Of a DNA stretch of 64,000 nucleotides, positions 1-51,549 are shown in pieces. The DNA comes from an uncultured beta proteobacterium. GTDB lineage: Bacteria > Pseudomonadota > Gammaproteobacteria > Burkholderiales > Casimicrobiaceae. Made by a program: the position numbers and the translations under genes. Location: positions 2,479 through 66,478 of the forward strand of contig CAVZLP010000013.1 in NCBI GenBank assembly GCA_963776175.1. Direction: 5' to 3'. Below the pieces are notes generated by a model, which worked only from the letters and a program-made list of their open reading frames with translations, had not been told where the DNA came from and made no database searches. The number at the start of each line of letters is the position of its first letter. Position 1 is the first letter of the stretch.

Positions 1-612
1 CTGCCCGAGATCGAGCTGATCGGGACTCAACAGCGACTGCCCTTGCCGGACCAGGTCGTCGGCGTCGGTGACGATGGCCACACCTTCGCCGGCAAAGCCG
101 AAGCGGCGTTTGAGGACCAGCGGGTAGCCCAGGGTCGCGGCGCAGGCGAGCGCCTCGTCGATGCCGTCCGCCACCGCGTACGGCGGCATGGCTACGCCCA
201 GCGCTTCGGCCGCCGGGGGCAGCAGTGTCTTGTCGATGCTGATCTGATAGAACGCCGGATCGCCGAGCGAGGTACGGATGAGCGTCTCGAGGCGCAAGCG
301 TGTGGCCGAGGGCAGGTCGGGGGGCGGCTCCAGCACCAGCGCGAACAACAGCCGGATAGCCATTTCGTCGCACGGCACCAGCAGGACGGGCGCAAGGTCG
401 TCGACGGCCGCGATCAGCGACTGCAGCCATTCCATCGGAATCGCGTTGCCGGCCAGCACGCGGCGTTTTGCGACATAGCGCGACTTGGCCGCAAGCGAAT
501 CCGCGGGCGCCAGCAACGACACTTCAAAATCGGCCTTGGCCAGCGCACGCGCCATTCGTGCCGGGCCGAGCCACTGCGAGGCCGTCGAAACCATCAGCAA
601 CGGTTCCCTCAT
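1..612 (-). CDS. ATP-grasp domain protein, N-terminal part (3' end runs off the window)
   Basis: Absent from the ORF track because it has no stop inside the window. The reverse complement from the ATG at 612-610 reads MREPLLMVSTASQWLGPARMARALAKADFEVSLLAP...AATLGYPLVLKRRFGFAGEGVAIV with high GC3. This is an ATP-grasp-like K...G-rich loop pattern. The + strand ORFs here are Arg-rich shadows. Confidence 0.6.
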   Translation of the reverse strand, partial: MREPLLMVSTASQWLGPARMARALAKADFEVSLLAPADSLAAKSRYVAKRRVLAGNAIPMEWLQSLIAAVDDLAPVLLVPCDEMAIRLLFALVLEPPPDLPSATRLRLETLIRTSLGDPAFYQISIDKTLLPPAAEALGVAMPPYAVADGIDEALACAATLGYPLVLKRRFGFAGEGVAIVTDADDLVRQGQSLLSPDQLDLGQ

Positions 613-652
613 CGAAAAGCGCTGCCCACGCGCAGGCAATGTCGTGCGCGCA

Positions 653-1672
653 TTATCGGGTCGGCAATCCGGCGTCGCGAATCACCGTTGCCCAGTGCTC
701 GCGGTCGGCCCTGATATCGGCGGCAAATCCCTCCGGCGTCCCTCCGAGCGGCTCCATGCCGAGGTTGGCAAGCTGCGCGCGTATGTCCTCCATCGCGAGA
801 ATGCGCGCCAGTTCGCCATGCAGCCGCATTACGATTTCACGCGGCGTGCCAGGGGGAACCAGCACGCCGTGCCATGTCACGACGTCGAAGCCGGGAAAGC
901 CCGATTCCGCCACCGTCGGGATTTCTGGAAACGCGGCAGCGCGCTGCAAACCGGTCACTGCCAGCGCGCGCAACTGCCCGGCGCGGATCAGCGTGGCCAC
1001 CGTCGCCAGATGCGTAAAGATCAGCGGCACCTCGCCGGCCAGCACGTCCTTGACCGCGGACGCCGTTCCGGCGTACGGAATCTGCAGCAGTCTGATCCCC
1101 GCGCGCTTGCTCAGCAGCGCCGCCGCCATGTGCGACGTCGATCCGATGCCGCTGCTGGCGTACGCGAGCGAGTCCGGCCTGCGCCGCGCGCGTTCGATCG
1201 TGTCGCTCAGCGATTTGACTTCCAGGCGCGGCGTAGCGGCAACGACGATCGCGAGGCTCGCCAGCTTGATCACCGGGACGAGCGCGGCATCGTCGACGAC
1301 GTCGCTGCCCTGTGTGCTCGGGACGATGGCGTTGGTGCCGTTGTTGCCAAGAAGGAGCGTGTAGCCGTCGGGCGCCGCCTTGGCCATATATTCGAGCGCA
1401 ATCCGTCCCGCGGCGCCGGCCTTGCTTTCGACGATGACAGGTTGCCCCAGCGCGTCGCTCAGCCGCGCTCCGATGATCCGCGCGAGAATATCGCTGGTGC
1501 CGCCGACAGTGTTGGGGATGATGAAGCGGATCGGACGCGACGGATAGTCGCCGGCGTTCTGGGCGAAGACGGTCGCGCCGTTCGCCGCCGCAAGCAGAAG
1601 CGCGAGCCGGCGGATGAACCGACGACGCGAACAAGTACGCGAGGCGGCGGATTCCGCCGGTATCGTCAGCAT
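653..1672 (-). CDS. Bug-family (TctC-like) tripartite tricarboxylate transporter substrate-binding protein
   Basis: 339-aa ORF with a Tat-like signal (SRRRFIRRLALLLAAA). Typical Bug motifs are present: YPSRPIRFIIP, GGTSDILAR, PDGYTLLL, AYASSGIGSTSH, IPYAG, PEIPTVAESGFPGF. Confidence 0.9.
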   Translation of the reverse strand: MLTIPAESAASRTCSRRRFIRRLALLLAAANGATVFAQNAGDYPSRPIRFIIPNTVGGTSDILARIIGARLSDALGQPVIVESKAGAAGRIALEYMAKAAPDGYTLLLGNNGTNAIVPSTQGSDVVDDAALVPVIKLASLAIVVAATPRLEVKSLSDTIERARRRPDSLAYASSGIGSTSHMAAALLSKRAGIRLLQIPYAGTASAVKDVLAGEVPLIFTHLATVATLIRAGQLRALAVTGLQRAAAFPEIPTVAESGFPGFDVVTWHGVLVPPGTPREIVMRLHGELARILAMEDIRAQLANLGMEPLGGTPEGFAADIRADREHWATVIRDAGLPTR

Positions 1673-1730
1673 CGGTTCAGAGTTCTGCGCCAGCGAGACG
1701 CCGAATTGCCGGCACGCGCATGTCCCTTTC

Positions 1731-3002
1731 CTAGCGCATGTTGCCCGTGTGACCCAGCGAGTAGCGGCCCGGCTGCGGCCACACGGTAAGTCCGTGCGGC
1801 TCGCGACCGACCGCTATTTTCGAGACTTCGCCGGATGCAGTGTCGATCGCGTAGACGACGTTGTCGTAACGACCGGCAAGCCACAGGCGCTTGCCGTCGG
1901 CGCTGACGTTGCCCATGTCCGGGCTGCCGCCGCCCGGGATCGGCCACGTGATCTCGACCTTGCGCGTGGCGAAGTCGATGACCGACACGCTGCCCTTGCC
2001 GTGCGGCGGTCCGTGAATCTTGTTCGATCCGCGATTGGCGACGTAGAGCTTTTTACCATCGCGGCTCGGATAGAGGCCATGCGTACCGATGCCGGTCGGA
2101 ATGAAATCGATTTGCCGGAACGCGGCGCCGTCGACCACGAATACTCCGTCGGCTTCCATGTCGGCGACGTAGAACAGCTTGCCGTCCGGCGAGACGCGGA
2201 TGTCCTGCGGCATGCTGGGGGCCATGGTGTGCGGTTTACGCTCGACACCGGTCCGGGAGTTCGATGCCATGCCTGGCGGTGCCGGCTTGCTGAGCTTCAG
2301 GTAGCCGAGCACCTTGCGCTCGACCATGTCGATCTTGACCAGGCCGCCATCGAATTCGCAAGTAAATATCGCGAAGCGGCCGTCGATGGAAAAGTCGGCG
2401 TGATTGATGCCGTCACATTGCGGCGTCGCGAGCGACGCCTGCATTTGCATCGAATGCGGATCGCGAAAGTCGAGCCGTTTACGCGACTCGGCGACGACGA
2501 TGGCGGAGCGTCCGTCCGGCGTGAAATACATGTTGTACGGATCGTCGACGACGATCGGACGCCCGGGCTTGCCTGTGACGGGGTCGATCGGCGTCAGGCT
2601 GCCGTCGGCGCGGTTCTCGGCATTATTGGCGACCCATAGGGTCTTCAGGTCCCACGACGGAACGACATGCTGCGGATTGACGCCCACCTTGAAGCGATCG
2701 ACGACTTTCATCGTCGCTGGGTCGATCACGTAGACATCGTTCGACTGAACGTTGGGCACGTAGACGCGGGGCAGCGCACCAGCGACGGCCGCGCTCAGCT
2801 TGCCGGCGCCGGCTTCGCTGTACAGGTTGTTTGGATCGGGTACCGGCGGCATGCCGGGGACAGTCACGACGGCTTCGGTAGCCGGGGAGGGCGGCACATC
2901 GCCGGCGGCGGTGAATGAGAGTACGACGGCGCCCAGGTAAAGCGTTGCGACCAGCGTGCGGGGGGTGATCGGTGCTGACATCGAGCGTCCTGTGATCGGC
3001 AA
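1731..3002 (-). CDS. YVTN-family beta-propeller repeat protein, secreted
   Basis: 423-aa ORF with an N-terminal hydrophobic signal. It has repeated ~40-residue units of the type D..VYVID...KVV..F.VG..P (NDVYVIDPATMKVVDRFKVG, KLFYVADMEADGVFVVD, KLYVANRGSN, SVSVIDFATRKV). Confidence 0.8.
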   Translation of the reverse strand: MPITGRSMSAPITPRTLVATLYLGAVVLSFTAAGDVPPSPATEAVVTVPGMPPVPDPNNLYSEAGAGKLSAAVAGALPRVYVPNVQSNDVYVIDPATMKVVDRFKVGVNPQHVVPSWDLKTLWVANNAENRADGSLTPIDPVTGKPGRPIVVDDPYNMYFTPDGRSAIVVAESRKRLDFRDPHSMQMQASLATPQCDGINHADFSIDGRFAIFTCEFDGGLVKIDMVERKVLGYLKLSKPAPPGMASNSRTGVERKPHTMAPSMPQDIRVSPDGKLFYVADMEADGVFVVDGAAFRQIDFIPTGIGTHGLYPSRDGKKLYVANRGSNKIHGPPHGKGSVSVIDFATRKVEITWPIPGGGSPDMGNVSADGKRLWLAGRYDNVVYAIDTASGEVSKIAVGREPHGLTVWPQPGRYSLGHTGNMR

Positions 3003-3038
3003 ATGGCGAATTATCGCCGAAATCGCCCGCCTCGCCGA

Positions 3039-3849
3039 TTACCGATGCCTGGTCGCCTTCCGAATCGCCTCCACGGTTTGCCTAACGACGATATCGACAC
3101 CAATCTGCCCGAGCTCCGCAGTGGCGCGACGCGGGTCGCCGTAGATGCCTTGCGCGGCGGTCGGCTTGCCGGACGAGCCAAGTCGGTCGGCCCGAACCAG
3201 ATCGGGCGCGAGCGCGAGCGTCAGCGACGTATCGGCCAATCCGGCATGCGAACCGATTTCCTCGTCGGAATAGCCGCGACGCTTCAGCTCCTGCACATAC
3301 GCCGTCTGCGTGACGCGGTAGTACTCCTCGATCGCGTGCACGCGCGTCCCCTGCGCTTGCCATTCGCGGTTGAGGCGGCTCGCGACGGCGAGCTCGTTTT
3401 TCTGGTAGCCACCGTGATCCCCGAGAAAGACGATGTCGCGAAAGCCGGCCCGACGCAGGCTCCGCGCCGCGTATTCCAGCGTTTTTTCGAACGTGGCGTC
3501 GGGAACCGTGATGGTTCCGGGAAATCGCATGTGCTGCGTCGGCGGATCGACGTTACCTTCCGGCACGTAAGCGATCACCGGCGCCACGCAGAGCATCGCC
3601 CAGGGTGCGCGCGATCTTCTCCGACAGTGCTTTTACCCGGACGTTGTGCTTGCCCAGCGCCATCAGCGGGCCGTTCTGCTCGGTCGCGCCGATCGGAACG
3701 ATGATCGTGGTCTTGCCGGCGGCTATGCCGTCGCGCAGCTCGGTCCAGGTCAGATCGTCGATGAACACGCTGGCTTGCGGCTGGGCCATCGCCACGGCGG
3801 CGGCGAGCGCCCAGGCGCAAAGCGCGCCGCGGAAGATTGCAGCAATCAT
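3039..3849 (-). CDS. creatininase-family amidohydrolase, frameshifted as assembled
   Basis: ORF 3553..3849 gives the signal peptide plus TTIIVPIGATEQNGPLMALGKH. ORF 3039..3596 continues with VAPVIAYVPEG...FPGTITV...FLGDHGGYQ...GSHAGLADTS. The two are one creatininase-type protein split by a 1-nt frame change near 3590-3600. Confidence 0.8.
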
Positions 3850-4010
3850 CGGCGAATCTTAGGCGATTGGGGGGATGAGAGCCAAGCCGAGCTCTTCGCT
3901 CTGGCACGGTTGAGCGAGGTCTTGCTACCGGGACGGCGTGCGATGGAGGAGGCGGGGCTCCGGCGTGGGGCGCTGGAGGCGCTGACGCGTCTGCTATAAT
4001 TCGTGGCCAA

Positions 4011-4088
4011 GCGCCCGTAGCTCAGTTGGATTAGAGTACCTGGCTACGAACCAGGGGGTCGTGGGTTCAAATCCTGCCGGGCGCGCCA
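4011..4088 (+). tRNA. tRNA-Arg (anticodon ACG)
   Basis: The cloverleaf can be drawn by hand: acceptor GCGCCCG/CGGGCGC, D arm GCTC..GAGT, anticodon arm CCTGG-CTACGAA-CCAGG (ACG at 4046-4048), T arm GTGGG-TTCAAAT-CCTGC, and G-CCA encoded. The T stem has two wobble pairs. Confidence 0.85.
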
Positions 4089-4096
4089 GACAATCA

Positions 4097-4128
4097 AAGG
4101 GTTGCATCGATGCAACCCTTTTTCTTTT
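4097..4128 (+). terminator. rho-independent terminator after tRNA-Arg
   Basis: Perfect 10-bp stem AAGGGTTGCA / TGCAACCCTT with a TCGA loop, followed by TTTCTTTT. Confidence 0.8.
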
Positions 4129-4176
4129 GGTCGGGCTAGCACCGGGCTAGCACGGGCTAAAGAGAGTCGTCGAACG

Positions 4177-4476
4177 ATGGGCAAACGATCCAGCGAGCCG
4201 CGAAGAGTGAGTCCCATGGCCTTCATCAATGGGGCGCGCTCGTACCAGGAAGCGGCGAATCAACTTCTTGCGATTGGAGTAGCTCGCGGTGCAGCGGCCG
4301 ACGGACCAGCGCTCACTGACCCAATTTACTTTCTGTACTTTCATGCGGTCGAGCTAGCTCTAAAAGGGTTCCTCGTCGCGCATGGACGCAGGTTCCGGCA
4401 ATCTGGACCTAAAGGCCATGACATACGAGCGCTATATGAACTGGCCTGCGATTGTGGACTGGCCGCGGCGACCTGA
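4177..4476 (+). CDS. hypothetical protein, HEPN-like helical fragment, 3'-truncated by IS insertion
   Basis: MGKRSS...SYQEAANQLL...IYFLYFHAVELALKGFLVAHG...HDIRALYEL resembles the first helices of HEPN-type domains. Its stop codon TGA (4474-4476) coincides with the TGAC... terminus of the IS element. Confidence 0.35.
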   Translation: MGKRSSEPRRVSPMAFINGARSYQEAANQLLAIGVARGAAADGPALTDPIYFLYFHAVELALKGFLVAHGRRFRQSGPKGHDIRALYELACDCGLAAAT

Positions 4477-4484
4477 CACCCGAT

Positions 4485-5360
4485 TTAGTCCGAGTTGCGG
4501 TTAGAGTCCGCGGGTAACGATACGCTTTCTTTGTCCTTCGCCAAACGGCTTTCAGCGAACTCCTGCGGTGTCAGGTTGCCGAGTGAGCTGTGTGGTCGCT
4601 CAGTGTTGTATTCGATGCGCCAGGCTTCGATGATACGACGGGCATGGGCCATGGTCAGGAACCAATGCTCGTTCAGGCACTCATCGCGGAACTTGCCGTT
4701 GAAGCTTTCGATGTACGCATTCTCATTCGGCTTCCCCGGTCGAATAAACGATAGATGTACCTTCGCGCCGTACGCCCAGGTGTCGAGTACCTGGCCTTCG
4801 AACTCCGGGCCATGATCGACGGTGATGGATTGCGGCAGCCCGCGGGTCTCGGCCAGCCTATCCAGCACGGCTTGTACGCGCGTCCCCGTGAGCGACGTAT
4901 CGGCCTCGATCGCCACGCACTCCCGCGTGCAGTCGTCCACAATGTTCAGGCAACGAAACCGTCTGCCGGCAGCCAGCCCGTCAGACACAAAGTCCATCGA
5001 CCAGCTCAGGTTCGCCGCCACCGGCTTCGGCAACGGCTTCCGCTCGACCAGCCCAATACGCTTGCGCTTGCGCCGCTGCACCGCCAATCCGGCATCACGG
5101 TAGATCCGATAGACCCGCTTGCGGTTGACCGGCCAGCCTTCACGTCGCAAGCGCAGATACACCCGGCGATACCCGTAGCGGCGCTTGAGCGCGGCAATCG
5201 CCTCGATGCGAGACCGCAAAGCCGTGCTATCGGGCCGGCGGCTGCGATAGCGATACAACGACCGAGAGATTCCTACCAGCCCGCAAGCGCGCGTCACGCC
5301 AAAGTCCCGTTCCATCAGCAGCAGAGTGACGGCTTCGCGCTTCGCCTGCGGGCTCACCAT
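4485..5360 (-). CDS. IS3-family transposase OrfB (DDE integrase core)
   Basis: 291-aa ORF with [61 protein letters not shown] and [11 protein letters not shown]. These are canonical rve-domain motifs. Confidence 0.92.
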
Positions 5361-5503
5361 TTTCGGTGTAGCAGGTCCTTCAAGGCGGCTTTATCGAGCT
5401 CCGCTTCGGCCAGCAAGCGTTTGAGCTTGGCGTTCTCCTGCTCGAGCTCCTTCAGCCGCCGGGCCTCCGACACCGTCATCCCCCCGTACTTCGCCTTCCA
5501 GTA
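5354..5503 (-). pseudogene. IS3 OrfA remnant (C-terminal leucine-zipper part only)
   Basis: The reverse complement reads [49 protein letters not shown] and ends in AAAATGGTGA, overlapping the orfB ATG. The N-terminal HTH is missing. Confidence 0.8.
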
Positions 5504-5768
5504 TAATATTATAAATATATTAAAATTATTAAATTGAAATTAAAAAAATTAAATTAATTATAAATAAAATAAATAATATATTATATAATATTATATATAT
5601 AATTAAATAAAATATTAATTTTAAAAAAAAAATAAATGATTAAATAAAATAAAATATTAAATAAAATAATAATTAATATAATTTAAAAAAAATTATTAAT
5701 TAATTAAAATTAAAATTTAATAGTTAATGTTATCTAGAATATATAGGATTTAAATTAAAAAAAAAAAA
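5504..5768. repeat. 265-nt extremely AT-rich low-complexity tract
   Basis: By my count there are only 8 G/C bases in 265 nt, in a roughly two-thirds GC context. Variations of TAAATAAAATA and poly-A runs recur, stops occur in all frames, and both borders are sharp. Confidence 0.95.
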
Positions 5769-5813
5769 CTACGAACCAGGGGGTCGTGGGTTCGAATCCT
5801 GCCGGGCGCGCCA
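5769..5813 (+). repeat. direct repeat of the tRNA-Arg 3' half (putative island att site, copy 2)
   Basis: CTACGAACCAGGGGGTCGTGGGTTCGAATCCTGCCGGGCGCGCCA matches 4044-4088 with one mismatch. There is no 5' half, so it is not a functional tRNA. Confidence 0.9.
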
Positions 5814-5822
5814 GACAATCAA

Positions 5823-5855
5823 GGGCTTGCAGAAATGCAGGCCCTTTTCATTTTT
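5823..5855 (+). terminator. terminator-like hairpin duplicated with the tRNA fragment
   Basis: GGGCTTGCA-GAAA-TGCAGGCCC followed by TTTTCATTTTT. It sits in the same position relative to CCA as the terminator at 4097. Confidence 0.6.
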
Positions 5856-5965
5856 CAATCGGTCCGCTTCCTCCCGCGTCAACCAGCGAATGTGCCGTTT
5901 GGGTTCCGGCAACATCCGCACGCGCGGGGCTTTGGCAATCAGTCCCGATCGAAAGCCGCTCGCCT
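5856..5965 (-). pseudogene. possible tyrosine-integrase remnant
   Basis: The minus-strand peptide ...GLIAKAPRVRMLPEPKRHIRWLTREEADRL resembles the linker region of phage-type integrases (V..LKEP.GR.R.LT.EE..RL). It abuts the tRNA fragment. Only about 35 residues are recognisable. Confidence 0.3.
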
Positions 5966-6232
5966 GACAACCGCCACAGTCAAATCGTTGAGAGCGGTCG
6001 TTCGACGGCGCTATCGAGCAATAATTGTCACTCGCGGCGCCGCCAGCTGTTCGTCTTGCTTGCGCTGTTGCCGGCTCCGACGGGGTATCGGGTATCCGAC
6101 TGCGCTCGGCGTCGGGTTTGCGGAGCCAAACCAACGGACAGTCTCAAATGTAGATAGGCACACTTTGTGCTTGTAGATTACAGCGCCCAATACAGGCTTG
6201 GCTCCCTCTATGCAAAGTTCCCGACTGCAGTG

Positions 6233-7628
6233 ATGTCCCCCCGCGATCCCACTACCAATATCGCGCTTCAGACGCTGCGGGCATCAGAAAGCCGCTACCG
6301 GCGACTTTTTGAGACCGCTCGATCCGGGATTCTGCTTCTTAACGGTGACACTGCCGAGATCGAAGAGGTCAACCCCTGCTTGATCGAGATGCTTGGCCTC
6401 TCGCGTGCCGAGCTACTGGGGAAAAAGACTATGGGAAGTGGGCGCGTTCGCGGACAACCCCAAGAGCAAAGAAATGTTCCGCGAGCTGCAAACCAAGGGC
6501 TGTGTCCGAGACGAAGATTTTTGGCTTCGTACGGCAGGAGGAACACAAATCGAAGTTGAATTCGTAAGCAATACTTTCGAGTGTGACGGCATCAAGCTAA
6601 TCCGGTGCGACGTTCGCGACATTACCGAGCGCAAGCGGGCCGAAGAGCAACTGCGTGCGGCCGAAGAGCAGTTCCGTGGCCTGGTCGAGCAACAGATCGC
6701 TGGCGTCTACATTATTCAGGATGGCAGGTTCATCTATGTAAATCCACGCTGTGCCGAGATTGTCGGTAGGGGCTCGACGAATGAACTGATCGGCACCGAT
6801 CCGGTGCGGTGGGTCGCCGAGGCCGACCAAGGTGTGGTCGCGGAACACATTCGCAGCCTGCTTGACGGCGAAACAAGTAGCGTCAAGTTGGAGTTTGGCG
6901 TGCAGCGTCGTGACGGAAGCGCGACCCAGGTCGGCGCACATGCCGCACGGACGACGCGCGAGGGCCGCCCCGCGATCATCGGCCTGGTGCAGGATATTTC
7001 GGAGAAGAAACGGGGCGAGGATGAGACTCGGCGTCACGTCGAGCAACTCAAGATTGCGTTCATGGGTACGGTCAAGGTCGCAACGATCATTAGCGAGATT
7101 CGCGACCCGTACACGGCCGGCCACGAGCGGCGGGTGGCGGAGCTTGCAGTCGCCATTGGCGACGAGCTTTGGCTCGACAGCACCCGGCTGGAGGGATTAC
7201 GGGTCGGCGGCCATCTGCACGATATTGGCAAGATGACCGTACCGTTAGAGATCCTTTCCAAGCCCGGCAAACTTAGCCCATTGGAGATGCAGTTAATTCG
7301 GGGACATGCCCAGGCTGGCTACGATGTGCTGAAGGACGTGGCGTTTCCTTGGCCGGTGGCGCAGATCGCGCTGCAGCACCACGAACGGGTGAACGGCAGC
7401 GGCTATCCGCAAGGGCTCAAGGGCGAGGCAATCTTGCTCGAGGCCCGGATAATGGCGGTGGCAGATGTGGTCGAGGCGATGTCCTCGCACCGACCGTACC
7501 GGCCCGGATTGGGAACCGAGACGGCTCTGGCCGAAATCGAGCGGGGCCGCGGAACGTTGTATGACGCGAATGCGGCAAATGCCTGCCTGTGTCTGTTTCG
7601 TGAGAGGCGCTACCAGTTAAACGGTTGA
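6233..7628 (+). CDS. PAS-PAS-HD-GYP domain signalling protein, frameshifted as assembled
   Basis: The N-terminal PAS (SESRYRRLFETARSGILLL...) is in ORF 6167..6559. The rest is in ORF 6393..7628: a second PAS, then HD-GYP motifs HLHDIGK, HHERVNGSGYP and ADVVEAMSSHRPYR. The frame change lies at the A5 run near 6424 (GGGGAAAAAGAC). Confidence 0.85.
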
Positions 7629-7800
7629 TACCACGGCGACCACCTCCGCGACCCATCAGTTCTGACCAATGTCCGGGAACTGGGTGAGGCTCGAACTCAT
7701 CACGTAATTTCGATTGATCTGATTTCTCGCAAGTGTCCGTTCATGGCCGTACGAAGAAGTGCGCGAAGGTCCGCTTCTCTAGGGTACGACTGGCAGCAGC

Positions 7801-8013
7801 GTCGATTGCGGCCGGTCGTCATCGGCACGAGGTTTTTCAAATCGACGATTCATGGTGAAGTAGAGTGCTGGAATTTCTGCTTCGATTCACAGCGAATCAA
7901 TGTAGCCGGACCGTAGCTTCGCCACGCTCTTGACGCTTCCCTTTGGACGTTGAGTAGCTACACCCGGAATTGGCGGACGCTGCAAGGAATTGATTTAGCT
8001 ACAGGCCAATTTC
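7801..8013 (+). repeat. 213-bp direct repeat, copy A
   Basis: Aligns without gaps to 9584-9796 with 8 mismatches by hand alignment. Confidence 0.9.
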
Positions 8014-8422
8014 ATTTTGGCCCCTACGAACCGCTGCTTCGCATTCGCACTTGCGCGTCATTCACTAGCCGTCTCAGCCGCTTAGGTCGGTTTGCATATC
8101 GGTCGACCGACGCGGTGTAGCCATAATGTATCTACGGACCGCGCGTTGGAGGGACGCGGGCGGATCCATCGCTACGCGCTTCAACGGCGCGTCTGCATTC
8201 GGCCAGTCCAGTCGCTCGCCACAGGCGGCTTCCTCGCATCTCACTAGGCCAGAGTTGCCGCGATGAAGCGCGGGGTCGGCGCATGCCCGAGAACACAAGC
8301 TCGGGGAGTTTCGTCTTGGCGGGCTGCTTTCTGGTGCGCACGGGCAAAGGCGCACCGCGCCTCAGATGCCCGCGCTTATCGCAAATGCCGGTCGGGCTTG
8401 CACAGCCTTGGCCGGGACTCCG

Positions 8423-9233
8423 CTATCCCGCCGCCACGATCACATGCGCCTGAATTTTGCCGGCCACCGGGCCTTCGCCATGGCGGCTGGCGATCGCCTC
8501 CGTCGCGCGGTCCGTAGCGAGCTGAAGCAAGCTGGCGTCGCGCGCCTCGATTTCGTTGCGCAGCGGCGTTCCCTGGCAATAGGCGGTGGCGGCGTCGCGT
8601 GCCGAGGGCGCGCGACTCACCTCCTCGCGCGCTCGATCTCGATGTCGGCGAACCCTGCGCGGCTCAATTCCTCGCGGATCAGTGCGATATCGTGATAGCC
8701 GTGCGGCGTGCGGGCGAGGAATCGCGGAGGGTCGTGCGGAAACACCGCGGCGACGGCGTTGGTGACGTCGTCGGCAAAGGCGTTCTCTTCGATGCGGTCC
8801 CAGACATTGAAGACAAAGCGCCCGCCTGGCCCAGCACGCGACGCGCCTCGGCGTAGCCGGCGACCCGGTTGGGAAAGAACATCGCGCCGAACTGGCAGCA
8901 AACGACGTCGAACGAGGCATCTTCGAACGGCAGGTCGAGCGCGTCCGCCTGCCGCCATTCGATACGGCTGTCGGACCCCTGCCGCGTGGCGGCATAGTCG
9001 AGCATGGGCTGGTTGAGGTCGGTCACCACGTAGCACGCGTCGGCGCGGAGTTCCGGCGCAAGCGCCCGCGTGACCACGCCGCTGCCGGCTGCCGTTTCAA
9101 GCACCGAGCCGGGCGAGGAGGCGGCGACAAGCTCCGCCAGGTCGGTGGCATAGGCCTCGAAGATCAGGGGGACCATCAGCGAGTCGTAGAACTTCGGGAT
9201 CGAGCCCGCGAACACCTTGTCGCTCTCAGCCAT
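8423..9233 (-). CDS. class I SAM-dependent methyltransferase, two frameshifts as assembled
   Basis: The protein is spread over three frames. Frame 1 reads MAESDKVFAGSIPKFYDSLMVPLIFE...VLETAAGSGVVT...FDVVCCQFGAMFF. Frame 2 reads GPGGRFVFNVWDRIEEN...HGYHD. Frame 3 reads ...AYCQGTPLRNEIEARD...GKIQAHVI. Confidence 0.75.
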
Positions 9234-9583
9234 GAGACCCCCTTGAAAGCTCTGAACGGCGCCCTTGACCACGCATTCCAGAGCGGGCCAGGCCTCTCCA
9301 ACGAGTCCGCCGCCTAGTTTGGGCATTGGCGACGATGCGCTATGGTGGCCGCGCATGCCAGCCTCGTCAACGTCGTCCTGCGGTCTTCTCCGTCATGCTT
9401 GCCGGCTACTTTGCCGGACATTCCCGCCCGCGTAAGGCGCGTCAGGCGCGTTCAGCCCATGGATTCAGGGCGAATGGCTGCTGACTGGCGTCGAACGAAT
9501 GCTTACGTGGCAGCGCTGTCGCGGTGATGCTGCGAATGGCGGCTGTCGGGCGAGCAATCTCAGCCGCCGTATGGCCGATATGG

Positions 9584-9796
9584 GTCGATTGCGGCCGGTC
9601 GCCATCGGCACGAGGTTTTTCAAATCGACGATTCATGGTGAAGTAGAGCGCTCGAATTTCTGCTTCGATTCGCAGCGAATCAATGTAGCCGGACCGTAGC
9701 TTCGCCACGCTCTTAACGCTTCCCTTTGCACGTTGAGTAGCTACACCCGGAATTGGCGGACGCTGCAAGGACTTGATTTAGTTACAGGCCAATTTC
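9584..9796 (+). repeat. 213-bp direct repeat, copy B
   Basis: See copy A. The pair brackets 8014-9583. Confidence 0.9.
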
Positions 9797-9903
9797 GTCC
9801 GCGACGCGGCCGAGGCCGCGGTCGGGGCGCCATGGGCGCCGACGCTGGAAATTTGCTATCGTCGCAACTTGCCGGACTCGGCCGGCTTCCGGGAGTGGCG
9901 ACG

Positions 9904-10872
9904 ATGGCAACGGTCACGAGTGGCCAACCGACCATGCCGCGGCGCAGCAACGCGCTTGGCGTGCATTCGCTGAATCGTTTCGTGTTCACGGTCCCGGACT
10001 TGGCACCCGCCGAGGCGTTTTACCGGTCATTCGGGCTCGACGCGCGGCGCGACGGCAATCGCCTCGACCTCTACACGCACGGCCATCCCCACTGCTGGGG
10101 TAGTGTTTACGCGAACGGCGAGCCGAAGCGACTCCAGTACCTGAGCTTTGCCGCCTACGCGGACGATTTCGACGCGCTGGCGGAGCGCGTGCGCAGCGCC
10201 GGCGCCGCCGACGCGCATCCGCTCTCGGACGGGCAGGGCGTGTGGACGCGCGATGCCGACGGCACCCCGATCCAGGTCGTCGTCGGACCCAAGGTGTCGC
10301 CGGCGGTCAAGGCAGAGGACACGCAAGTGCCGCCGCCTCCGCCCGGCAAGGGCGCCGCGCCGGGACGCAGCGCGGCCGCGCCGGTGCGGCCGCGACGCCT
10401 GTCGCACGTGCTGCTGTTCTCGCCGGACGTGTCGCGGCAGGCCGCGTTCTACGAGCGCGTCCTCGGCCTGCGGCTGGCAGACCGCTCCGGCGACATCATC
10501 GCGTTCATGTACGGTCCGCATGCGAGCGACCACCACATGGTCGCGTTCGCGAAATCGGAAGCGCCGGGTCTGCATCATTCGAGCTGGGACGTCGGCCGCT
10601 TCGACGATGTGGGGCTCGGCGCCGAGCTCATGAAGGCGAAGGGGTACGACCATGGGTGGGGCGTGGGCCGGCACGTGCTGGGCTCGAACTACTTCTACTA
10701 CGTGCAGGACCCGTGGGGAAGCTGGGCCGAGTACTCGTACGACATCGACTTCGTCCCCGCCGACGTCGACTGGCCGGCCGCCGATCATCCGGTGGAGGAT
10801 TCGTTCTACATCTGGGGGCCGACGGTCCCCGACGACTTCGTCGTCAATCACGAGCAACCGCGAACCGCGTGA
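9904..10872 (+). CDS. two-domain VOC-family protein (extradiol/catechol 2,3-dioxygenase-like)
   Basis: Contains two glyoxalase/VOC-like modules (LNRFVFTVPDLAPAEAFY...; LSHVLLFSPDVSRQAAFYERVLGLRL...DHHMVAF...HHSSWDV). The start is chosen at the ATG at 9904 (MATVTSGQ), downstream of repeat copy B. Confidence 0.75.
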   Translation: MATVTSGQPTMPRRSNALGVHSLNRFVFTVPDLAPAEAFYRSFGLDARRDGNRLDLYTHGHPHCWGSVYANGEPKRLQYLSFAAYADDFDALAERVRSAGAADAHPLSDGQGVWTRDADGTPIQVVVGPKVSPAVKAEDTQVPPPPPGKGAAPGRSAAAPVRPRRLSHVLLFSPDVSRQAAFYERVLGLRLADRSGDIIAFMYGPHASDHHMVAFAKSEAPGLHHSSWDVGRFDDVGLGAELMKAKGYDHGWGVGRHVLGSNYFYYVQDPWGSWAEYSYDIDFVPADVDWPAADHPVEDSFYIWGPTVPDDFVVNHEQPRTA

Positions 10873-10965: not shown

Positions 10966-12175
10966 ATGAGGATCGCACATTGCTTGACCCGTTGGCTGGG
11001 CGCTGTCGTTTGCGCCTTCGCATTCGCGGCGACGGGCGCGCTCGCGCAGGGCAGCCAGCCGCCCATCAAGATCGGCAGCACGCTCGCGCTGACCGGGCCG
11101 CTCGCCGCGACGAGCCTCGTGCACAAGGTCGTCGGCGAGATCTACGTCGAGCAGTTGAACAAGCGCGGCGGCCTGCTCGGCCGGCCCGTCGAGTGGATCG
11201 TCAAGGATGACCAGTCGAAGCCCGACCTTGCGCGCACGCTCTACGAGCAGCTCCTCACCGTCGACAAGGTGGACCTGCTGATGGGTCCGTACGCCACCGG
11301 CGCGATCCTGTCGGCGATGAGCGTCGCGCAGCGCTACGACAAGGTGCTCGTCCACCACACGTTCGGCATCCCGTCGCTCGCCAAGTACGACAAGCAGTTC
11401 CCGGCCTGGTCGCTCGGCCCCGATCCGGCGAACACGGTCCCGACCACGGTGTTCAACGCGCTGGCCGCATCGCCCAAGCCCCCGAAGACGATCGCCGTGG
11501 TCACGAGCAAGTTCCCGTCGGTCCACTTCATGTCGCTCGGCGCCCGCGAGGTCGCGAAAAAGCGCGGGCTCAACGAAGTGCTGTTCCTCGAATGGGACTT
11601 CGGCAATCTCGACTACGGTCCGATCGCCGCGCGCGTCAAGGACGCCCATCCGGACTTCCTCTGGGTCGGCGCGCTTGGACTCGAGGGCAACCAGCTGCTC
11701 GAGGCGATGAACAAGATCGGCTATACGCCCAAGGAACACTTCTACATGTACCCGGCGCCGGGGCCGATGTCCAAGTCGCCGCTCGCGAAGAACGCGCTGT
11801 CGATGACGATGTTCGAAGAGCATCCGCCTTTTACTAATGCGCCCGGCGCCGCCGAATTCATCGCTCTCTATCACGAACGCGCTGCGAAGGCGGGCATCCC
11901 CGACACCAACGTCGAGGTGCAGGCCGCGGCGTCGTACACGGCGTGGCAGATCCTCGAGGCGGCCGTCCGCGGCGACGAACAGCCTCGACGACGCGAAGAT
12001 GGCGGCGTGGCTGAAGGCCAACCGCGTCGACACGATCCAGGGCAAGCTGCGCTTCGATGGCCCGAGCAACTACGGCGACGACCTGATGCGCGTCAAGCAG
12101 GTGCAGAACGGGCGCTGGGTCACCGTCTACCCGAAGGAATACGCGGCTCCGGGCGCGACGCTGCTCGTGCAATGA
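10966..12175 (+). CDS. Liv-type (branched-chain amino acid family) ABC substrate-binding protein, frameshifted as assembled
   Basis: Has a signal peptide, then PIKIGSTLALTGPLA, LLMGPYATG and FLWVGALG. The C-terminus (SLDDAKMAAWLKANRVDTIQGKLRFDG...) is in ORF 11837..12175. The frame change is near 11960-11975. Confidence 0.8.
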
Positions 12176-13029
12176 CGTTCCCGAGCGGGACGCTGCTCGC
12201 GCAGTCGGCGCTCTCCGGCGTCTTCATCGGCAGCATGTACGGGCTGCTGGGGATGGGGCTCGGCCTCGCGTGGGGGCTGCTGCACGTCATCAACCTCGCG
12301 CACTTCGCGTTCGCGTTCCTTGCGGCTTACCTCTGCTATCAGCTCGCGAGCGTCGGCGGCATCGATCCGCTGCTGACGCTCGCGCTGATCGTCCCGCTGT
12401 TCTTCGCGCTGGGCGTGGCCGTGCAGTGGCTGCTGTCGCGCTTCGCGGTGTCGCCGCTCAACTCGCTGCTCGCGACGTTCGGCCTGACCGCGATCATCGA
12501 GGCCGCCATCCAGTACTTCTGGACCGCCGACTTCCGCAAGCTCGAGTCCGTCTATTCCGGCGCAGAAGCTGCGCGTGGGCGAGCTGTTCGTGCCGATTCC
12601 CGAACTGCTGACGCTGGTGCTGGCGCTGCTGCTCGGGTTCGGCATCTGGGCGGCGATGCGCTACACGGACCTCGGGCGCGCGCTGCGCGCGCTGGCCGAG
12701 GACGCGCCGATGGCGGCGGCCTTCGGCGTGAACCGGCGCGCACACGCGCTGCTGCTGGCGGGCGTGTGCGGCACGCTCGCCGGCATCGCCGGCGTGTGCC
12801 TCGCGCTGTCGTTCACGCTGACGCCGTCGCAGATCTACGCGTGGGTGGGCGTCGTGTTCGCCGCCGTGATGCTGGGCGGGCTGGGCTCGCCGCTGGGACC
12901 GCTCGCCGCCGGCATCGTCGTCGGCGTCAGCGAGGCGGTGACGATGGCGTTCGCCTCGCCGTCGTGGGCGCCGATCGTGTCGTTCTCGCTGCTGATCGCC
13001 TGCTGCTGCTGCGCCCGGGCCGCACCTGA
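12172..13029 (+). CDS. Liv-type ABC permease (LivH-like), two frameshifts as assembled
   Basis: ATGA overlap with the upstream stop. The sequence runs MTFPSGTLLAQSALSGVFIGSMYGLLGMGLGLAWG...INLAHFAF, then (ORF 12575 frame) GELFVPIPELL...DLGRALRALAEDAPMAAAFGVN...GGLGSPLGPLAAGIVVG. Confidence 0.75.
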   Translation: MTFPSGTLLAQSALSGVFIGSMYGLLGMGLGLAWGLLHVINLAHFAFAFLAAYLCYQLASVGGIDPLLTLALIVPLFFALGVAVQWLLSRFAVSPLNSLLATFGLTAIIEAAIQYFWTADFRKLESVYSGAEAARGRAVRADSRTADAGAGAAARVRHLGGDALHGPRARAARAGRGRADGGGLRREPARTRAAAGGRVRHARRHRRRVPRAVVHADAVADLRVGGRRVRRRDAGRAGLAAGTARRRHRRRRQRGGDDGVRLAVVGADRVVLAADRLLLLRPGRT

Positions 13030-13082
13030 AACTCGACCGGACGCTCGTCGGGATCGGCGCCGCGGGCCTCGCGCTCGCGGTC

Positions 13083-14784
13083 GTGCCGTTCTTGCACCTT
13101 CCTGCGTTCTACGAGTCGTTCCTCTACCTCGTGTTCCACTGGATCGTGCTCGCCACGTCCTGGAACATCCTGAGCGGTTACTCCGGCTATTTCTCGTTCG
13201 GGCACGGCGCGTTCTTCGGCGCCGGCGTCTACACGACGGCGGTGCTGGCCGGCAAGTACGACGTGCCGTTCCTGTGGACGCTGCCCGCCGCCGCCCTCGT
13301 CGCGGCGCTGCTGGGGCTGGGCCTGGGCGCGGTGGTCTTCCGCGTGCGCCACGTGCGCGGCGAGCTGTTCGCGCTGCTGACGCTGGCGGCCACGTTCGTG
13401 CTCGCGACGATCGTCCTCAACACGCCCATCGACGGCGGCCCCGGCGTGTACCTGTCCGCGGTTCCAGTACCGAAGCTCGCGCCGACGCCGTCCGGCGCGT
13501 TCTACATGATGGCGCTCGCACTCGCGATCGGCACGGTGGCGATCGCGTACGCGATCGCGCGCGGCGCGACTCGGGCTGGGACTCTTCGCCATCCACGACG
13601 ACGAGGACGCGGCGGAGGTCATGGGCGTGCCGACCTACGGCTACAAGCTCGTCGCGTTCGGCGTCTCCTGCGCGCTCGCCGGCGTCGCGGGCGGCATCCA
13701 GGCGTTGTTCGTGTCGTACGTCACCGCGAACGGCACCTTCAACATCACGGTGCCGCTGACGGTCGTGCTGATGAGCGTGCTCGGCGGCACGCGTTTCTGG
13801 GCCGGCCCGGCGATCGGCGCTACCGCGATCACGATCCTGCTCTACGCGACGACGGCCGCCGACCAGCCGGTGGTCGGCAAGGCGGTGGCGGGCGCGGTTC
13901 TCGTCGCGGCGATCCTGCTGATGCCGGAAGGGATCCTCGGCCGGGCCTTCGCGCGGCGCGGCCGTGGCGCGCCACCCGCGCCGGCGTCGGCACCGACGCT
14001 GGTTCACGCGGATGCCGTCGTCGGCGCCATCGAACTCCCGGCCGCAGAAGGCGACCGGCCGGTGCTGCTGGCGGTACGCGGCGTCGCCAAGTCGTTCAAG
14101 GGCGTGCGCGCGCTCGACGGCGTCGACCTCGACGTGCGCGCAGGCGAGATCCTCGGCGTGGTCGGTCCCAACGGATCGGGCAAGTCGACGCTGATCAATG
14201 TCGTGAGCGGCCATTTCCGTGCCGACGCCGGCAGCGCGCGCTTCGGCAACGTCGACCTGCTCGCGCTGCCCGCGCACCGGATCGCGCGCGCCGGTGTGGC
14301 GCGCACCTACCAGATCCCACGGCCGTTCGCGCATCTCACGGTCCGCGACAACGTTGCGCTCGCCGCGATGTTCGGCGGCACGGCGCTCGACCGGCGTCAC
14401 GCGGCAGAGGCCGCGTCGCACTGGCTGCAGTTCACCGGCCTCGCGGCGCGCGCCGACGCGTATCCGGGCGACCTCAACCTGCACCAGGCCAAGTTCCTCG
14501 AGCTGGCGCGCGGGCTCGCCGCGAAGCCGCGTCTCCTCATGCTCGACGAGGTGCTGTCGGGCCTCACGCCGGCGGAGATCGACGATGCGATCGACCTCAT
14601 CCTCCGCATTCGTGCGCAGGGCACGACCATCGTGCTGGTCGAGCACGTGATGCGGGTGGTGACGGCGCTCGCCGAACGCATCGTGGTCCTCGACCAGGGC
14701 GACGTGCTGGCCGAGGGACGCACCGCCGACGTGATGGCGCGGCCGGACGTCGTCGCGGCCTACCTGGGCGATCCTCATGCTTGA
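13083..14784 (+). CDS. Liv-type ABC permease fused in frame to an ATP-binding domain (LivM-LivG-like), one frameshift as assembled
   Basis: The permease part reads NILSGYSGYFSFGHGAFFGAGVY...LFAIHDDEDAAEVMGVPT...GGTRFWAGP. It runs without a stop into the ATPase GPNGSGKSTLINVVSG...LMLDEVLSGL...VLVEH. The frame change is near 13560-13575. Confidence 0.8.
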
Positions 14785-15494
14785 GGTCCGCGACCTCGAG
14801 GTGGACTACGGCGCGGCGCCGGCGGTCTGCGACGTGTCGCTCGACCTCGCCGCCGGCGAGCTCGTCTGCGTCCTCGGGCCGAACGGCGCCGGCAAGTCGA
14901 CGCTGATCAACGCGCTGGCCGGCCTGCATCGCGCCAGCGCCGGACGGATCGCGATGGACGGGCGCGACCTGACCTCGATGCCGGCGCATCGCTATTGCAG
15001 CGCCGGTATCGCGATCGTGCCCGAAGGCCGCCGGCTGTTCACGCGGATGAGCGTGCGCGAGAATCTCGAGGTCGGCAGCTACGCCGCCCGCGGCGCGAAA
15101 GGAGCGCGCGCGCACGCTCGAGCGGGTGTGCACGCTGTTCCCGGCCGTGCGCGACAAGCTCGACGCGCCTGCCGGCGCGCTGTCGGGCGGCCAGCAGCAG
15201 ATGGTGGCGATCGGCCGCGCGCTGATGGCGCAGCCGCGACTGCTCCTGCTCGACGAGCCGTCGCTCGGGCTGTCGCCGCTCATCGTGCAGGCCATGTTCG
15301 GCGCGATCCGGGAGGTCAATGCGGGCGGGACGTCGGTGCTGCTCGTCGAGCAGAACGTGGCCAATGCGCTCGCCATCGCCGATCGGGCGTATCTGCTCGA
15401 GGAAGGCCGGATTGTCGCCGAGGGCACGCCCGACGCGGTGTTCGGCGACCCGGCGCTGCGGCGCGCCTATCTGGGCGCGGCCACGGGTCCTTGA
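14777..15494 (+). CDS. Liv-type ABC ATP-binding protein (LivF-like), frameshifted as assembled
   Basis: Walker [17 protein letters not shown] is in ORF 14777. The signature LSGGQQQM and Walker [12 protein letters not shown] are in ORF 15126..15494. The frame change is near 15085-15100. Confidence 0.85.
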
Positions 15495-15545
15495 ACCGAT
15501 CGCGTAAATTAACGGCAGCCGTCCCACCACGAGAGGAACCGAGCC

Positions 15546-16106
15546 ATGAGCAGGACACCCGTCGGCGCCATCGTCGGCAGCAACCGCCGCGAGTCGATCA
15601 ACCGCCGCCTGGCGCTCGCGCTGACGCGGCTCGTCGAGGACCGCATCGCGTGGCGCTGGATCCGCATCGATGACCTGCCGATGTACAACCAGGACCTCGA
15701 GCCGGACCGGCCCGAGACCGTACGGCGCTTCACGGCGGAGGTCGCGAGCGTCCCGGCCGTGTTCTTCGTCACGCCGGAGCACAACCGCTCGCTCCCCGCC
15801 GTGCTCAAGAACGCGATCGACTGGGGGTCGAAGCCGACGGACAAGCAGGTGTGGCGCGGCCGCGTCGCGGCCATCACCGGCACGTCGTTCGGCGTCATCG
15901 GCACGGCCGTCGGCCAGCAGCATCTGCGGCAGATCCTGGGCATCCTCGGCATGACCGTGATGGGCGGCGAGGCGTACATCTCGTTCAAGCCGGATCCCGT
16001 CGACCACGACGGCAACTTTCTCGACGAGAGCAAGCGCGCGTTCTGCCAGGCGTACATGGACCAGTTCGTCGCGCTGGTCGCACGGTTTGCCGATCCGAGC
16101 GTTTAG
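15546..16106 (+). CDS. NADPH-dependent FMN reductase family protein
   Basis: 186-aa ORF with GSNRRESINRRLA, VFFVTPEHNRSLPAVLKNAIDW and ITGTSFG. This is a typical FMN_red/ChrR-like pattern. Confidence 0.85.
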   Translation: MSRTPVGAIVGSNRRESINRRLALALTRLVEDRIAWRWIRIDDLPMYNQDLEPDRPETVRRFTAEVASVPAVFFVTPEHNRSLPAVLKNAIDWGSKPTDKQVWRGRVAAITGTSFGVIGTAVGQQHLRQILGILGMTVMGGEAYISFKPDPVDHDGNFLDESKRAFCQAYMDQFVALVARFADPSV

Positions 16107-20703: not shown

Positions 20704-21730
20704 TCAACGTCCTTTCGCTTTGAGAGCGGCATCGAGGCGCGGATAGACACGCCGCGCGTTGGCTTCGTAGATCTTGTGCCGCTGCTCCGGATCGATGTGC
20801 GCGGCCTCGATGTAGCGCCTGGTGTCATCGTAGTAGTGACCCGTCTCGGGGTCGATGCCGCGCACCGCGCCGATCATCTCGCTCGCAAACAGGATGTTGT
20901 CGACCGGAATCACGCGCGTGAGCAGGTCGATGCCGGGCTGGTGATAGACGCAGGTGTCGAAGAAGACGTTGTTGAGCAGATGATCCTTCAGCAACGGCTT
21001 CTTCATCTCCTGCGCCAGGCCGCGGAAGCGGCCCCAGTGGTACGGCACCGCGCCGCCGCCGTGCGGAATCACGAAGCGCAGCGTCGGAAAATCCTTGAAC
21101 AGGTCCGACGTGAGGCACTGCATGAAGGCCGTGGTGTCCGCGTTCAGGTAGTGCGCGCCAGTGGTGTGGAAGCACGGATTGCAGCTCGTGCTCACGTGGA
21201 TCATCGCGGGGATGTCGTACTCGACCATCTTCTCGTAGATCGGATACCAGTGGCGATCGGACAGCGGCGGCGAATTCCAGTGCCCGCCCGACGGGTCGGG
21301 GTTCAGGTTGATCGCGACGTTGCCATATTTCTCCACGCACTTCACGAGCTCCGGGAATGCAGGTCGCAGGGTCGACGCCCGGGCTCTGCGGCAGCATCGC
21401 GGCCGGGATGAAGTGGTCCGGGAATAGCCGGCTCACGCGGTAGCAAAGCTCGTTGCAGATCGCCGCCCACGTGCTCGAGACCTGGAAATCCCCGATGTGA
21501 TGCGCCATGAAGCTCGCGCGCGGGCTGAAGATCGTGAGGTCGAGGCCGCGCTCGCGCATGAGCCGCAGCTGATTGCTTTCGATCGACTCGCGCAGCTCGT
21601 CGTCGCTGATGCGGAGTTCGGATGCCTGGGGCATCTGCGACGGATTCTCGATGCCCGCAATCTGCCGGTTGCGCCACGCCTCCAGCGCCTTGGGTGCCGT
21701 GGTGTAGTGGCCGTGGATGTCGATGATCAT
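20704..21730 (-). CDS. ligJ: 4-oxalomesaconate hydratase (amidohydrolase-2), frameshifted as assembled
   Basis: [14 protein letters not shown]... is in ORF 20825..21730. ...[22 protein letters not shown]...[17 protein letters not shown] is in ORF 20704..21345. The frame change is near 21345-21365. Confidence 0.85.
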
Positions 21731-21816
21731 CGAGTCACTCCCGTTCGAACACCGTGTTTCACTTGTCGCATGCGAATCTGGGAGGCCGTGACCGCAGGTC
21801 TTGGGTTCTGCGCGGT

Positions 21817-23371: not shown

Positions 23372-23406
23372 GGGGGCGTGGGTTCAAATCCTTCCGGGCG
23401 CGCCAG
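23372..23406 (+). repeat. diverged third copy of the tRNA-Arg 3' end (putative distal att site)
   Basis: GGGGGCGTGGGTTCAAATCCTTCCGGGCGCGCCA compared with GGGGGTCGTGGGTTCAAATCCTGCCGGGCGCGCCA. The flanking GACAA-CAAGGGCTTGC is also shared with copies 1 and 2. Confidence 0.8.
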
Positions 23407-23414
23407 ACAAACAA

Positions 23415-23443
23415 GGGCTTGCTGCGATGCGAGCCCTTTTTTT
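23415..23443 (+). terminator. terminator-like hairpin following tRNA-fragment copy 3
   Basis: GGGCTTGC-TGCGAT-GCGAGCCC followed by a T7 run. Confidence 0.55.
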
Positions 23444-33891: not shown

Positions 33892-33904
33892 GGCGAGTCC
33901 TTCG

Positions 33905-34876: not shown

Positions 34877-34887
34877 GGTGTCGCTCC

Positions 34888-35167
34888 CTAGAACATCGCG
34901 TCCGCGACGTCCTTCTCGCGCAACATGCGCCGTTTCCACGTGGCGATCTGCGGCACGACGTAAGGCAGGAGCCGCAGGCTGTAGTACGGCGGCAGGATCG
35001 GGAATGCCGAGGAGGTCGCCCATCGTGATCAGGATGAACAGATGCTCCATCGATGCGCGTGTGCGCAGGGCCGCGCGGCTCATGTCGTGGGCGGCCATGC
35101 CGTACACGGTGTCGGTGATGTTGTGCCACAGCCTCTTCGCCGCCGATACTTTCTCTTGCTCTGTCAT
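34888..35167 (-). CDS. small conserved hypothetical protein B (PPYY-LRLLP-VVPQ-TWKR motif), frameshifted as assembled
   Basis: AAGGAG RBS. Reads MTEQEKVSAAKRLWHNITDTVYGMAAHDMSRAALRTRASMEHLFILITMGDLLGIP. After correcting one base in the G/C run near 35000 it continues ILPPYYSLRLLPYVVPQIATWKRRMLREKDVADAMF*. It is a paralogue of 35181..35418. Confidence 0.6.
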
Positions 35168-35180
35168 GGCCGTCTCCTTT

Positions 35181-35418: not shown

Positions 35419-35478
35419 GAACTCGCGTAGCGCGCGCCTCCACCCGCCGGCGGCGGGCGTGTTATCGTCCCTTCCGCC

Positions 35479-36114: not shown

Positions 36115-36128
36115 CACGATCCAGGCGC

Positions 36129-51400: not shown

Positions 51401-51549
51401 GGAATAGGGTAAACGGTCACATCACGATGCCTTATCTACAACGTCCCGGAGGAGCCGCGCAGGAAAAGCACGCCGTTTAGTTGAAGATCGCCCGATATTT
51501 TGGCACGATGAACGGTTCCGACACCGTATCCCTATCACGGAGGCCCCTT

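Follow-up and report, generated by a model that had tools for sequence, protein, structure and literature searches.

How did a segment built almost wholly of A and T come to lie in a GC-rich bacterial genome? The question is raised by a 64,000-nucleotide stretch of DNA, hereafter the window, from an uncultured beta proteobacterium of the Casimicrobiaceae (GenBank assembly GCA_963776175.1, contig CAVZLP010000013.1, positions 2,479 to 66,478 of the forward strand). At positions 5503-5768 of the window, a tract of 3% GC lies between a truncated insertion sequence (IS) of the IS3 family and a displaced 3′ half of a tRNA-Arg gene. A sequence-only reading had offered three explanations for it: (i) foreign DNA captured at an integration hotspot, (ii) an assembly artefact, or (iii) a functional element such as a curved segment, a silencer nucleation site or a DNA-unwinding element. 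We tentatively favour the reading, to which we give a little less than an even chance, that the tract is real sequence without a function of its own, trapped as filler where DNA ends were joined without homology in the decayed remnant of an integrative element. The surrounding biology is ordinary: a tRNA-Arg integration hotspot that holds a truncated IS and a series of decayed islands.

Composition and borders of the tract

A count over positions 5504-5768 gave 8 G or C among 265 nucleotides (159 A, 98 T, 7 G, 1 C), which agrees with the figure in the sequence-only reading. Comparison with an intact copy of the neighbouring IS in a sister contig (L095), to which homology stops at 5502, moved the start of the tract to 5503 and set its length at 266 nt. 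The window as a whole has a GC content of 64.3%, and its next-lowest 265-nt segment has 51%. With the composition of the window, the binomial log10 probability of finding at most 8 G or C in 266 nt is about -102. Outside the tract, no run of nine or more nucleotides consisting only of A and T occurs in the 64 kb. The plus strand of the tract is A-rich, with runs of 7, 8, 10, and 12 A residues and a longest T run of 4. The 30-mers at its two junctions are TTCGCCTTCCAGTATAATATTATAAATATA and AAATTAAAAAAAAAAAACTACGAACCAGGG.

The tract is non-coding, as every reading frame contains stop codons, and has no terminal inverted repeats, since the AT-on-AT inverted matches within it stay at the chance level. 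Both these features and the sharpness of the two borders had been claimed before and were borne out. The repeated units resembling TAAATAAAATA that had been described proved not to form a tandem array: Tandem Repeats Finder (TRF) returned weak, overlapping periods without a dominant unit, and a tandem-repeat origin was rejected on this basis. The k-mer diversity of the tract equals that of a first-order Markov random sequence with matching dinucleotide content. A structured RNA was rejected as well, as an Rfam search of positions 3500-10000 matched only the tRNA and assigned no RNA family to the tract. Taken by itself, the tract shows no sign of function.

The tract ends at the crossover point of a tRNA-Arg integration site

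The locus around the tract was annotated and compared with sister contigs in public assemblies, designated L092 to L099. From left to right it contains the following features.

4011-4088, plus strand: functional tRNA-Arg(ACG) gene, found by ARAGORN and Rfam (tRNA, 62 bits), syntenic in L092, L093, L094, and L098
4044-4128, plus strand: direct repeat 1, attL-like, composed of the tRNA-Arg 3′ half and a diverged terminator hairpin; left end of the insertion
4216-4469, plus strand: orphan open reading frame (ORF) fragment, weakly HEPN-like (Pfam HEPN, E = 0.0035, below the curated cut-off), its 3′ end cut by the IS
4470-5502, minus strand: IS of the IS3 family, IS407 group (Pfam rve, rve_3, and HTH_21), its ends defined by alignment of relatives
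5503-5768, no strand: A/T-only tract, 266 nt, 3% GC, non-coding, aperiodic
5769-5853, plus strand: direct repeat 2, attR-like, composed of the displaced native tRNA-Arg 3′ half and the native terminator

The two direct repeats are 85 nt each and 88% identical. Their tRNA parts differ at 1 of 45 positions, and their hairpins, of which the one in repeat 1 lies at 4096-4121, differ through paired changes. Both repeats start at tRNA position 34, where the 7-nt anticodon loop CTACGAA begins (the anticodon itself is at position 36); the anticodon loop is, like the T-loop, a canonical crossover sublocation in tRNA genes. The 3′ part of the functional tRNA gene, from 4044 onward, comes from the inserted DNA. 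The right end of the tract adjoins position 5769, the first base of the displaced tRNA-Arg 3′ half and of the 85-nt repeat, and the previously noted contact between the tract and a duplicated tRNA half thus holds to the base. The displaced half carries a G in the T-loop at position 5794 (GGTTCGAATCC), where the functional tRNA, L094, and L095 have an A. This private substitution is consistent with drift in an old, dead remnant.

The insertion comprises 1,725 nt (4044-5768) and contains the orphan ORF fragment, the truncated IS and the A/T tract. No homologues of the orphan ORF were found in a search of 5.8 billion proteins or in a viral scan, and PADLOC and PHROGs gave no match either. The minus-strand ORF 5769-6134 (“...IRWLTREEADRL”) resembled an integrase fragment, but Pfam returned no match.

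A third copy of the tRNA 3′ part was detected further to the right:

23372-23440, plus strand: degenerate tRNA-Arg 3′ part and terminator, 87% identical to 5780-5848 by self-BLAST and recognized by reading the sequence

The window therefore holds three direct copies, at 4044, 5769, and 23372. The third one starts in the T-arm region and closes the array of decayed islands on the far side; genes in this array concern aromatic-ring cleavage (LigAB), liv-type transport and shikimate dehydrogenase. Three tRNA 3′ copies, together with an exactly empty site in a sister contig, substantiate the integration hotspot that had been proposed from the window alone.

Elements of this kind have a known counterpart. 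Williams reportedly catalogued in 2002 the tyrosine-integrase elements that recombine in the anticodon loop of tRNA genes and duplicate the 3′ half. The locus resembles remnants of tRNA-borne genomic islands in its repeat from the anticodon loop to the tRNA 3′ end, its empty sister site, its tandem remnants and its strain-variable content. It differs from them in that no integrase is left in the array, the insert has only 1.7 kb and the distal 266 nt are 97% A+T.

Three alleles diverge at one nucleotide

The comparison with sister contigs had been proposed as a check for an empty site or an intact IS, and both were found. The 444-kb contig L094, which like L095 comes from the same species, is 97.7% identical to window positions 1-4128 and 96.9% identical to 5769-9601, the two alignments overlapping on one repeat copy. 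It lacks the insertion: a single intact tRNA-Arg gene, with the terminator type of the right-hand repeat and not that of 4096-4121, directly joins the two flanks. The size difference of ~1,725 nt equals the spacing of the repeats. This empty site shows that 4044-5768 is a strain-specific insertion bounded exactly by the repeats.

A third allele is present in L095 (13.7 kb). Its island measures at least 9.4 kb and includes the IS of the window as an intact copy, 93.5% identical to 4475-5502. The right end of this island is an arm of ~230 nt with normal GC content, followed directly by CTACGAACC; the arm takes the position of the A/T tract. The three alleles diverge at one and the same nucleotide, immediately to the left of CTACGAACC, which is tRNA position 34: there the intact tRNA gene is found in L094, the arm in L095 and a run of 12 A residues in the window. 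The closest relative, L096 (98.7% identity), begins 38 nt inside the repeat, and the sequence just to the right of the tract is clean and nearly identical to it. Still other sequences lie downstream of the tRNA gene in L092, L093, and L098; L097 and L099 stop short of the site. For the neighbouring YncE-like and PAS/HD-GYP proteins, close relatives of each were present in public assemblies, whose names suggest Casimicrobiaceae-like Burkholderiales of soil origin. A metagenome scan with the YncE-like protein yielded only relatives of at most 79% identity, which lacked the tRNA gene.

The left border lies inside an IS3-family element

The sequence-only reading held that the left border cuts an IS3 orfA, and the comparison with relatives in Burkholderia and Ralstonia, whose alignment set the ends of the IS, confirmed this. 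The right inverted repeat is present at 4470 (GACCTGACACCC), and orfB is intact (4485-5360, 291 amino acids, with rve domains); its product is 67-70% identical to IS3-family transposases of Burkholderia and Ralstonia. Of orfA, the C-terminal 49 codons remain (about 5352-5502 in minus-strand translation). About 180 nt of the IS are gone, comprising the N-terminal part of orfA and the left inverted repeat, so that the element shows the orfA/orfB organization with rve domains of the IS3 family but only one of the two inverted repeats. Its reading frames are unbroken up to the border of the tract.

Proposed filler DNA at an end-joined junction

The right border is the crossover boundary shared with two other alleles; the left one lies at no special position of the IS, inside orfA, which fits illegitimate joining. 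According to the reading that we favour, a larger element would formerly have occupied the tRNA-Arg site. A break at the attR crossover may have been rejoined without homology to a second break within IS3 orfA; this crossover marks the left side of the 7-nt overlap in the anticodon loop, the point at which tyrosine integrases cleave the top strand. Such a rejoining would have removed the remainder of the element and left a 266-bp A/T-only fragment caught in the junction. This fragment would be either foreign, from an extremely AT-rich source, or made without a template. As an integrase is absent from the locus, the enzyme causing the break would have had to act in trans. In its present place the tract would act merely as easily melted, promoter-like, silencer-attracting DNA beside a dead tRNA half.

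Obvious candidates for the joining step are the Ku and LigD proteins of this genome, which are encoded in the window, outside the locus:

48791-51400, minus strand: LigD, 869 amino acids, with phosphoesterase, ligase, and polymerase domains (NCBIfam PRK05972, 1066 bits)
51481-52452, plus strand: Ku (Ku_bact, 278 bits)

The two genes form a divergent pair, both products score above the curated cut-offs, and together they make up a complete bacterial system for non-homologous end joining (NHEJ). Experiments with Sinorhizobium meliloti have demonstrated that bacterial NHEJ captures heterologous DNA into genomic breaks (PMC6379672). The locus shares with the capture events described by Dupuy et al. 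(2019, PMC6379672) the homology-free junctions, the filler unrelated to the flanks and the presence of genes for Ku and LigD. The published cases were obtained in the laboratory with supplied DNA and an induced break, whereas in the window the break, the donor and the role of Ku and LigD are hypothetical.

The position of the right border speaks for a genuine junction. It matches, to the nucleotide, the crossover boundary of two other alleles, which adds weight to the option of foreign DNA; an artefact would have to have hit that nucleotide by coincidence.

Several observations weigh against captured filler. No integrase domain was detected in the ORFs of 4089-5768, in those that adjoin the repeat on its right or in the large ORFs scanned from 8.7 to 32 kb, and for this reason the locus can be called a remnant only. 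The tract was not found in any independent contig: L094, L095, and L098 have other alleles, and L096 starts inside the repeat. Three scans of viral contigs with the most complex sub-strings of the tract revealed no donor, nor did BLAST searches of plasmids and phages, in which the low-complexity filter probably masks most of the tract. In any environment, natural DNA stretches of 266 nt with 3% GC are rare, which makes random capture unlikely a priori, and we know of no report of a comparable tract in finished high-GC genomes. LigD adds only a few untemplated nucleotides and could not itself have made the tract. The assembly, moreover, is error-prone: at least seven genes within ~20 kb are split by single frameshifts, and comparison with two or more sister contigs revealed ~17 single-nucleotide indels in ~8 kb that are specific to the window.

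No match to the tract was found among the 99 compared loci either. Candidate sources would be the intergenic DNA of an extremely AT-rich soil eukaryote, for example a social amoeba or a ciliate, or DNA made without a template; that the junction represents natural non-homologous capture of such exogenous DNA at the crossover break of a site-specific recombination event we regard as unlikely. If true, it would be evidence from the field that joining by Ku and LigD at integrase sites carries foreign sequence into bacterial chromosomes.

Errors in the assembly and the possibility of an artefact

The strongest competing explanation is that the tract arose as an error in the basecalling or assembly of noisy long metagenome reads, with junk basecalls or a chimeric read segment surviving in the consensus. 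We consider this almost as likely as captured filler. Because the locus varies between strains and has repeats on both sides (the IS and the tRNA halves), few reads may have been available for correction. In that case the tract would stand in place of the missing IS end and an island end, or of a larger island. The first of these would fit the available space, as ~180 nt of IS and an island end could be accommodated in 266 nt.

The genes split by frameshifts encode a creatininase, a PAS/HD-GYP protein, livH-, livM-, and livF-like proteins, an amidohydrolase and LigA. They appear as overlapping ORFs on the same strand at 3039-3849, 6167-7628, 10966-15673, and 20704-22378, and probably also at 35181-37653 and 58679-62429. 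The creatininase and PAS/HD-GYP genes, the two that were compared, are intact in sister contigs, and single-nucleotide insertions at 3588 and 6429 are missing from three or four of these contigs. Such a pattern suggests an indel-rich consensus built from noisy long reads at low coverage, not decaying genes. The names of the related contigs are Flye-style, and all come from one ENA project, which may be that of the Nanopore-only Microflora Danica assemblies, a match based on contig naming only and unconfirmed. The Microflora Danica assemblies were produced from Nanopore reads alone with one round of Medaka polishing (PMC12313526). The richness in indel errors and the lack of an independent contig with the tract are the reasons why an artefact gains weight. 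In addition, nowhere else in the 64 kb do nine or more A/T nucleotides follow one another, the tract has no homologue in the collections searched or in other assemblies of the species, and the break of the L096 contig within the tRNA repeat next to the tract shows that assemblers struggle at this locus. The literature provided nothing usable on a nanopore artefact that yields A/T-only segments.

Against an artefact stands the shape of the segment. We found no concrete mechanism that would keep the flanks collinear, end at the shared boundary and leave the adjoining 300 nt free of errors. A ligation chimera would need two junctions that return to one locus in the same orientation. Junk from a stalled read is expected to be homopolymeric or of short period, but the tract is aperiodic, and the frames of the IS remain unbroken as far as the left border. 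Nor is the tract a miscalled copy of the expected sequence. Hypermutation, whether RIP-like or by deamination, or miscalling of G to A and C to T was rejected, as alignments of the tract in a purine/pyrimidine-collapsed (R/Y) alphabet stayed within shuffle nulls: the score was 83 against the missing IS end (null, 83.9 ± 4.9) and 94 against the island arm (null, 86.7 ± 5.0), and the collinear R/Y agreement with the IS end or the arm was 42-54%. An amino/keto collapse gave a marginal result (p about 0.013 before multiple testing). The tract thus shares with long-read consensus errors a high indel rate around it, a strain-variable and repeat-flanked location and unmatched sequence, and it differs from them in borders that are exact and biologically meaningful, in collinear and clean flanks and in aperiodic content. 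Of the three options offered at the outset, foreign DNA and artefact both survive at roughly equal weight.

Other island ends at the tRNA-Arg site

A different genuine origin would be that the tract is the native right arm of the inserted element, of which a later deletion starting in IS3 orfA left the last 266 nt. This element would have recombined through the tRNA-Arg 3′ half, and its own end would for that reason adjoin the crossover. An A/T-only arm might have helped the DNA to bend or melt within the recombination complex. Besides the arm of L095, the window contains two copies of a normal-GC arm:

7801-8032, plus strand: island-end arm copy 1, ~230 nt, normal GC, ending in CTACGAAC (self-BLAST, BLAST to L095, alignment)
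9582-9796, plus strand: island-end arm copy 2, truncated before the tRNA fragment

In L095, the arm (...CAGGCCAATTTCATTTTGGCCC) occurs at 9257-9487, 11509-11724, and 13301-13534. In both contigs its copies are followed by the tRNA-Arg 3′ half, complete or in part, and it resembles an attachment-site arm belonging to an element family that uses tRNA-Arg. The arm copies in the window divide the region from 5.85 to 23.4 kb into tandem island remnants without integrase. In another Burkholderiales contig (L005, DATIWX010000152.1), which belongs to the metagenome-assembled genome (MAG) of a distant relative, two tRNA-Arg 3′ halves are located in tandem 1,121 nt apart within 3987-5192; both are preceded by one and the same 44-nt island end of normal GC content, and AT-rich sequence is absent.

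A native arm is supported by the right border, which lies exactly at the attachment-site boundary, and by its simplicity, as a single extra event, the deletion, suffices. As the insertion has its own diverged tRNA half and terminator, it must stem from a different element than that of L095. AT-rich flanks near related IS elements also exist in the Burkholderiales. On plasmid NZ_CP115948.1 of Ralstonia solanacearum MolK2 (L011, positions 480-583), the left inverted repeat of a related IS3-family element is immediately preceded by ~100 nt with 17% GC, which shows that short AT-rich flanks beside such IS elements occur naturally in GC-rich Burkholderiales, although in a far less extreme form. However, the other element ends at this site, three copies in L095 and two in the window, are ~230 nt long and of normal GC content, as are those of L005 in their GC content. 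A scan of a genome collection identified nine distant MAG loci with the tRNA 3′ end and its flank; none of them carries an AT-rich tract, and ordinary sequence is found there instead. The run of 12 A residues occupies the place where the usual architecture of attachment sites would put an integrase core-binding site similar to the anticodon stem. The only gene of the element, lacking relatives in the databases, offers no comparison. We therefore judge a native arm to be improbable.

Absence of features of a functional element

The third of the original options, a functional element that serves as the DNA-unwinding element of an integrated replicon, is intrinsically curved or nucleates an H-NS-like silencer, was unsupported and seems very improbable to us. 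In its favour, the extreme A+T content makes the tract the most easily melted DNA of the window, and promoter-like hexamers are dense in it, as six of the seven in 3900-6300 lie within the tract compared to 1.9 expected for the region. The latter enrichment is explained by the base composition of the tract. Curved DNA was rejected because the autocorrelation of AAA was negative at lags of 10-12, without a peak near 10.5, and thus gave no A-tract phasing. A replication origin or unwinding element was likewise rejected: positions 4000-6500 contain no DnaA box with up to one mismatch, and neither iterons nor a replication gene were found. The tract has no IHF consensus, and genes for replication, partition or regulation are absent from the 1.7-kb insert. 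Finally, the tract is missing from all sister genomes, which indicates that it is dispensable. The absence of these companion features already largely refutes a functional element.

Xenogeneic silencers such as H-NS, MvaT, Lsr2, and Bv3F bind AT-rich DNA acquired by horizontal transfer. With such silenced DNA the tract has in common a GC content far below that of the host and a location at an integration hotspot. It is unlike silenced islands, which span kilobases, are coding and typically have a GC content 10-20% lower, in being 266 nt long, non-coding and of 3% GC.

Further features of the window

Three observations elsewhere in the window are recorded here. At 57755-58325, DNA is tandemly repeated in copies offset by ~130-265 nt and 79-85% identical. 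Two adjacent genes for ATPases of the ArsA/GET3/TRC40 family are located on the minus strand at 32815-35443, the second of which has an N-terminal extension of ~200 amino acids. This second gene also contains an internal repeat of 192 nt (34915-35106 and 35226-35417, 74% identical).

Implications

If the tract is an artefact, it is a warning that public long-read MAGs may carry compositionally absurd segments at strain-variable, repeat-flanked loci, where they would mislead scans for foreign DNA, replication origins or silencer targets. If the tract is genuine, it would be one of the rare traces left in nature by DNA capture without homology, here in a free-living soil bacterium, located at an integrase crossover in a genome that encodes Ku and LigD. 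It would then support the idea, so far based on laboratory work, that bacteria acquire DNA of unrelated organisms in part through end joining.

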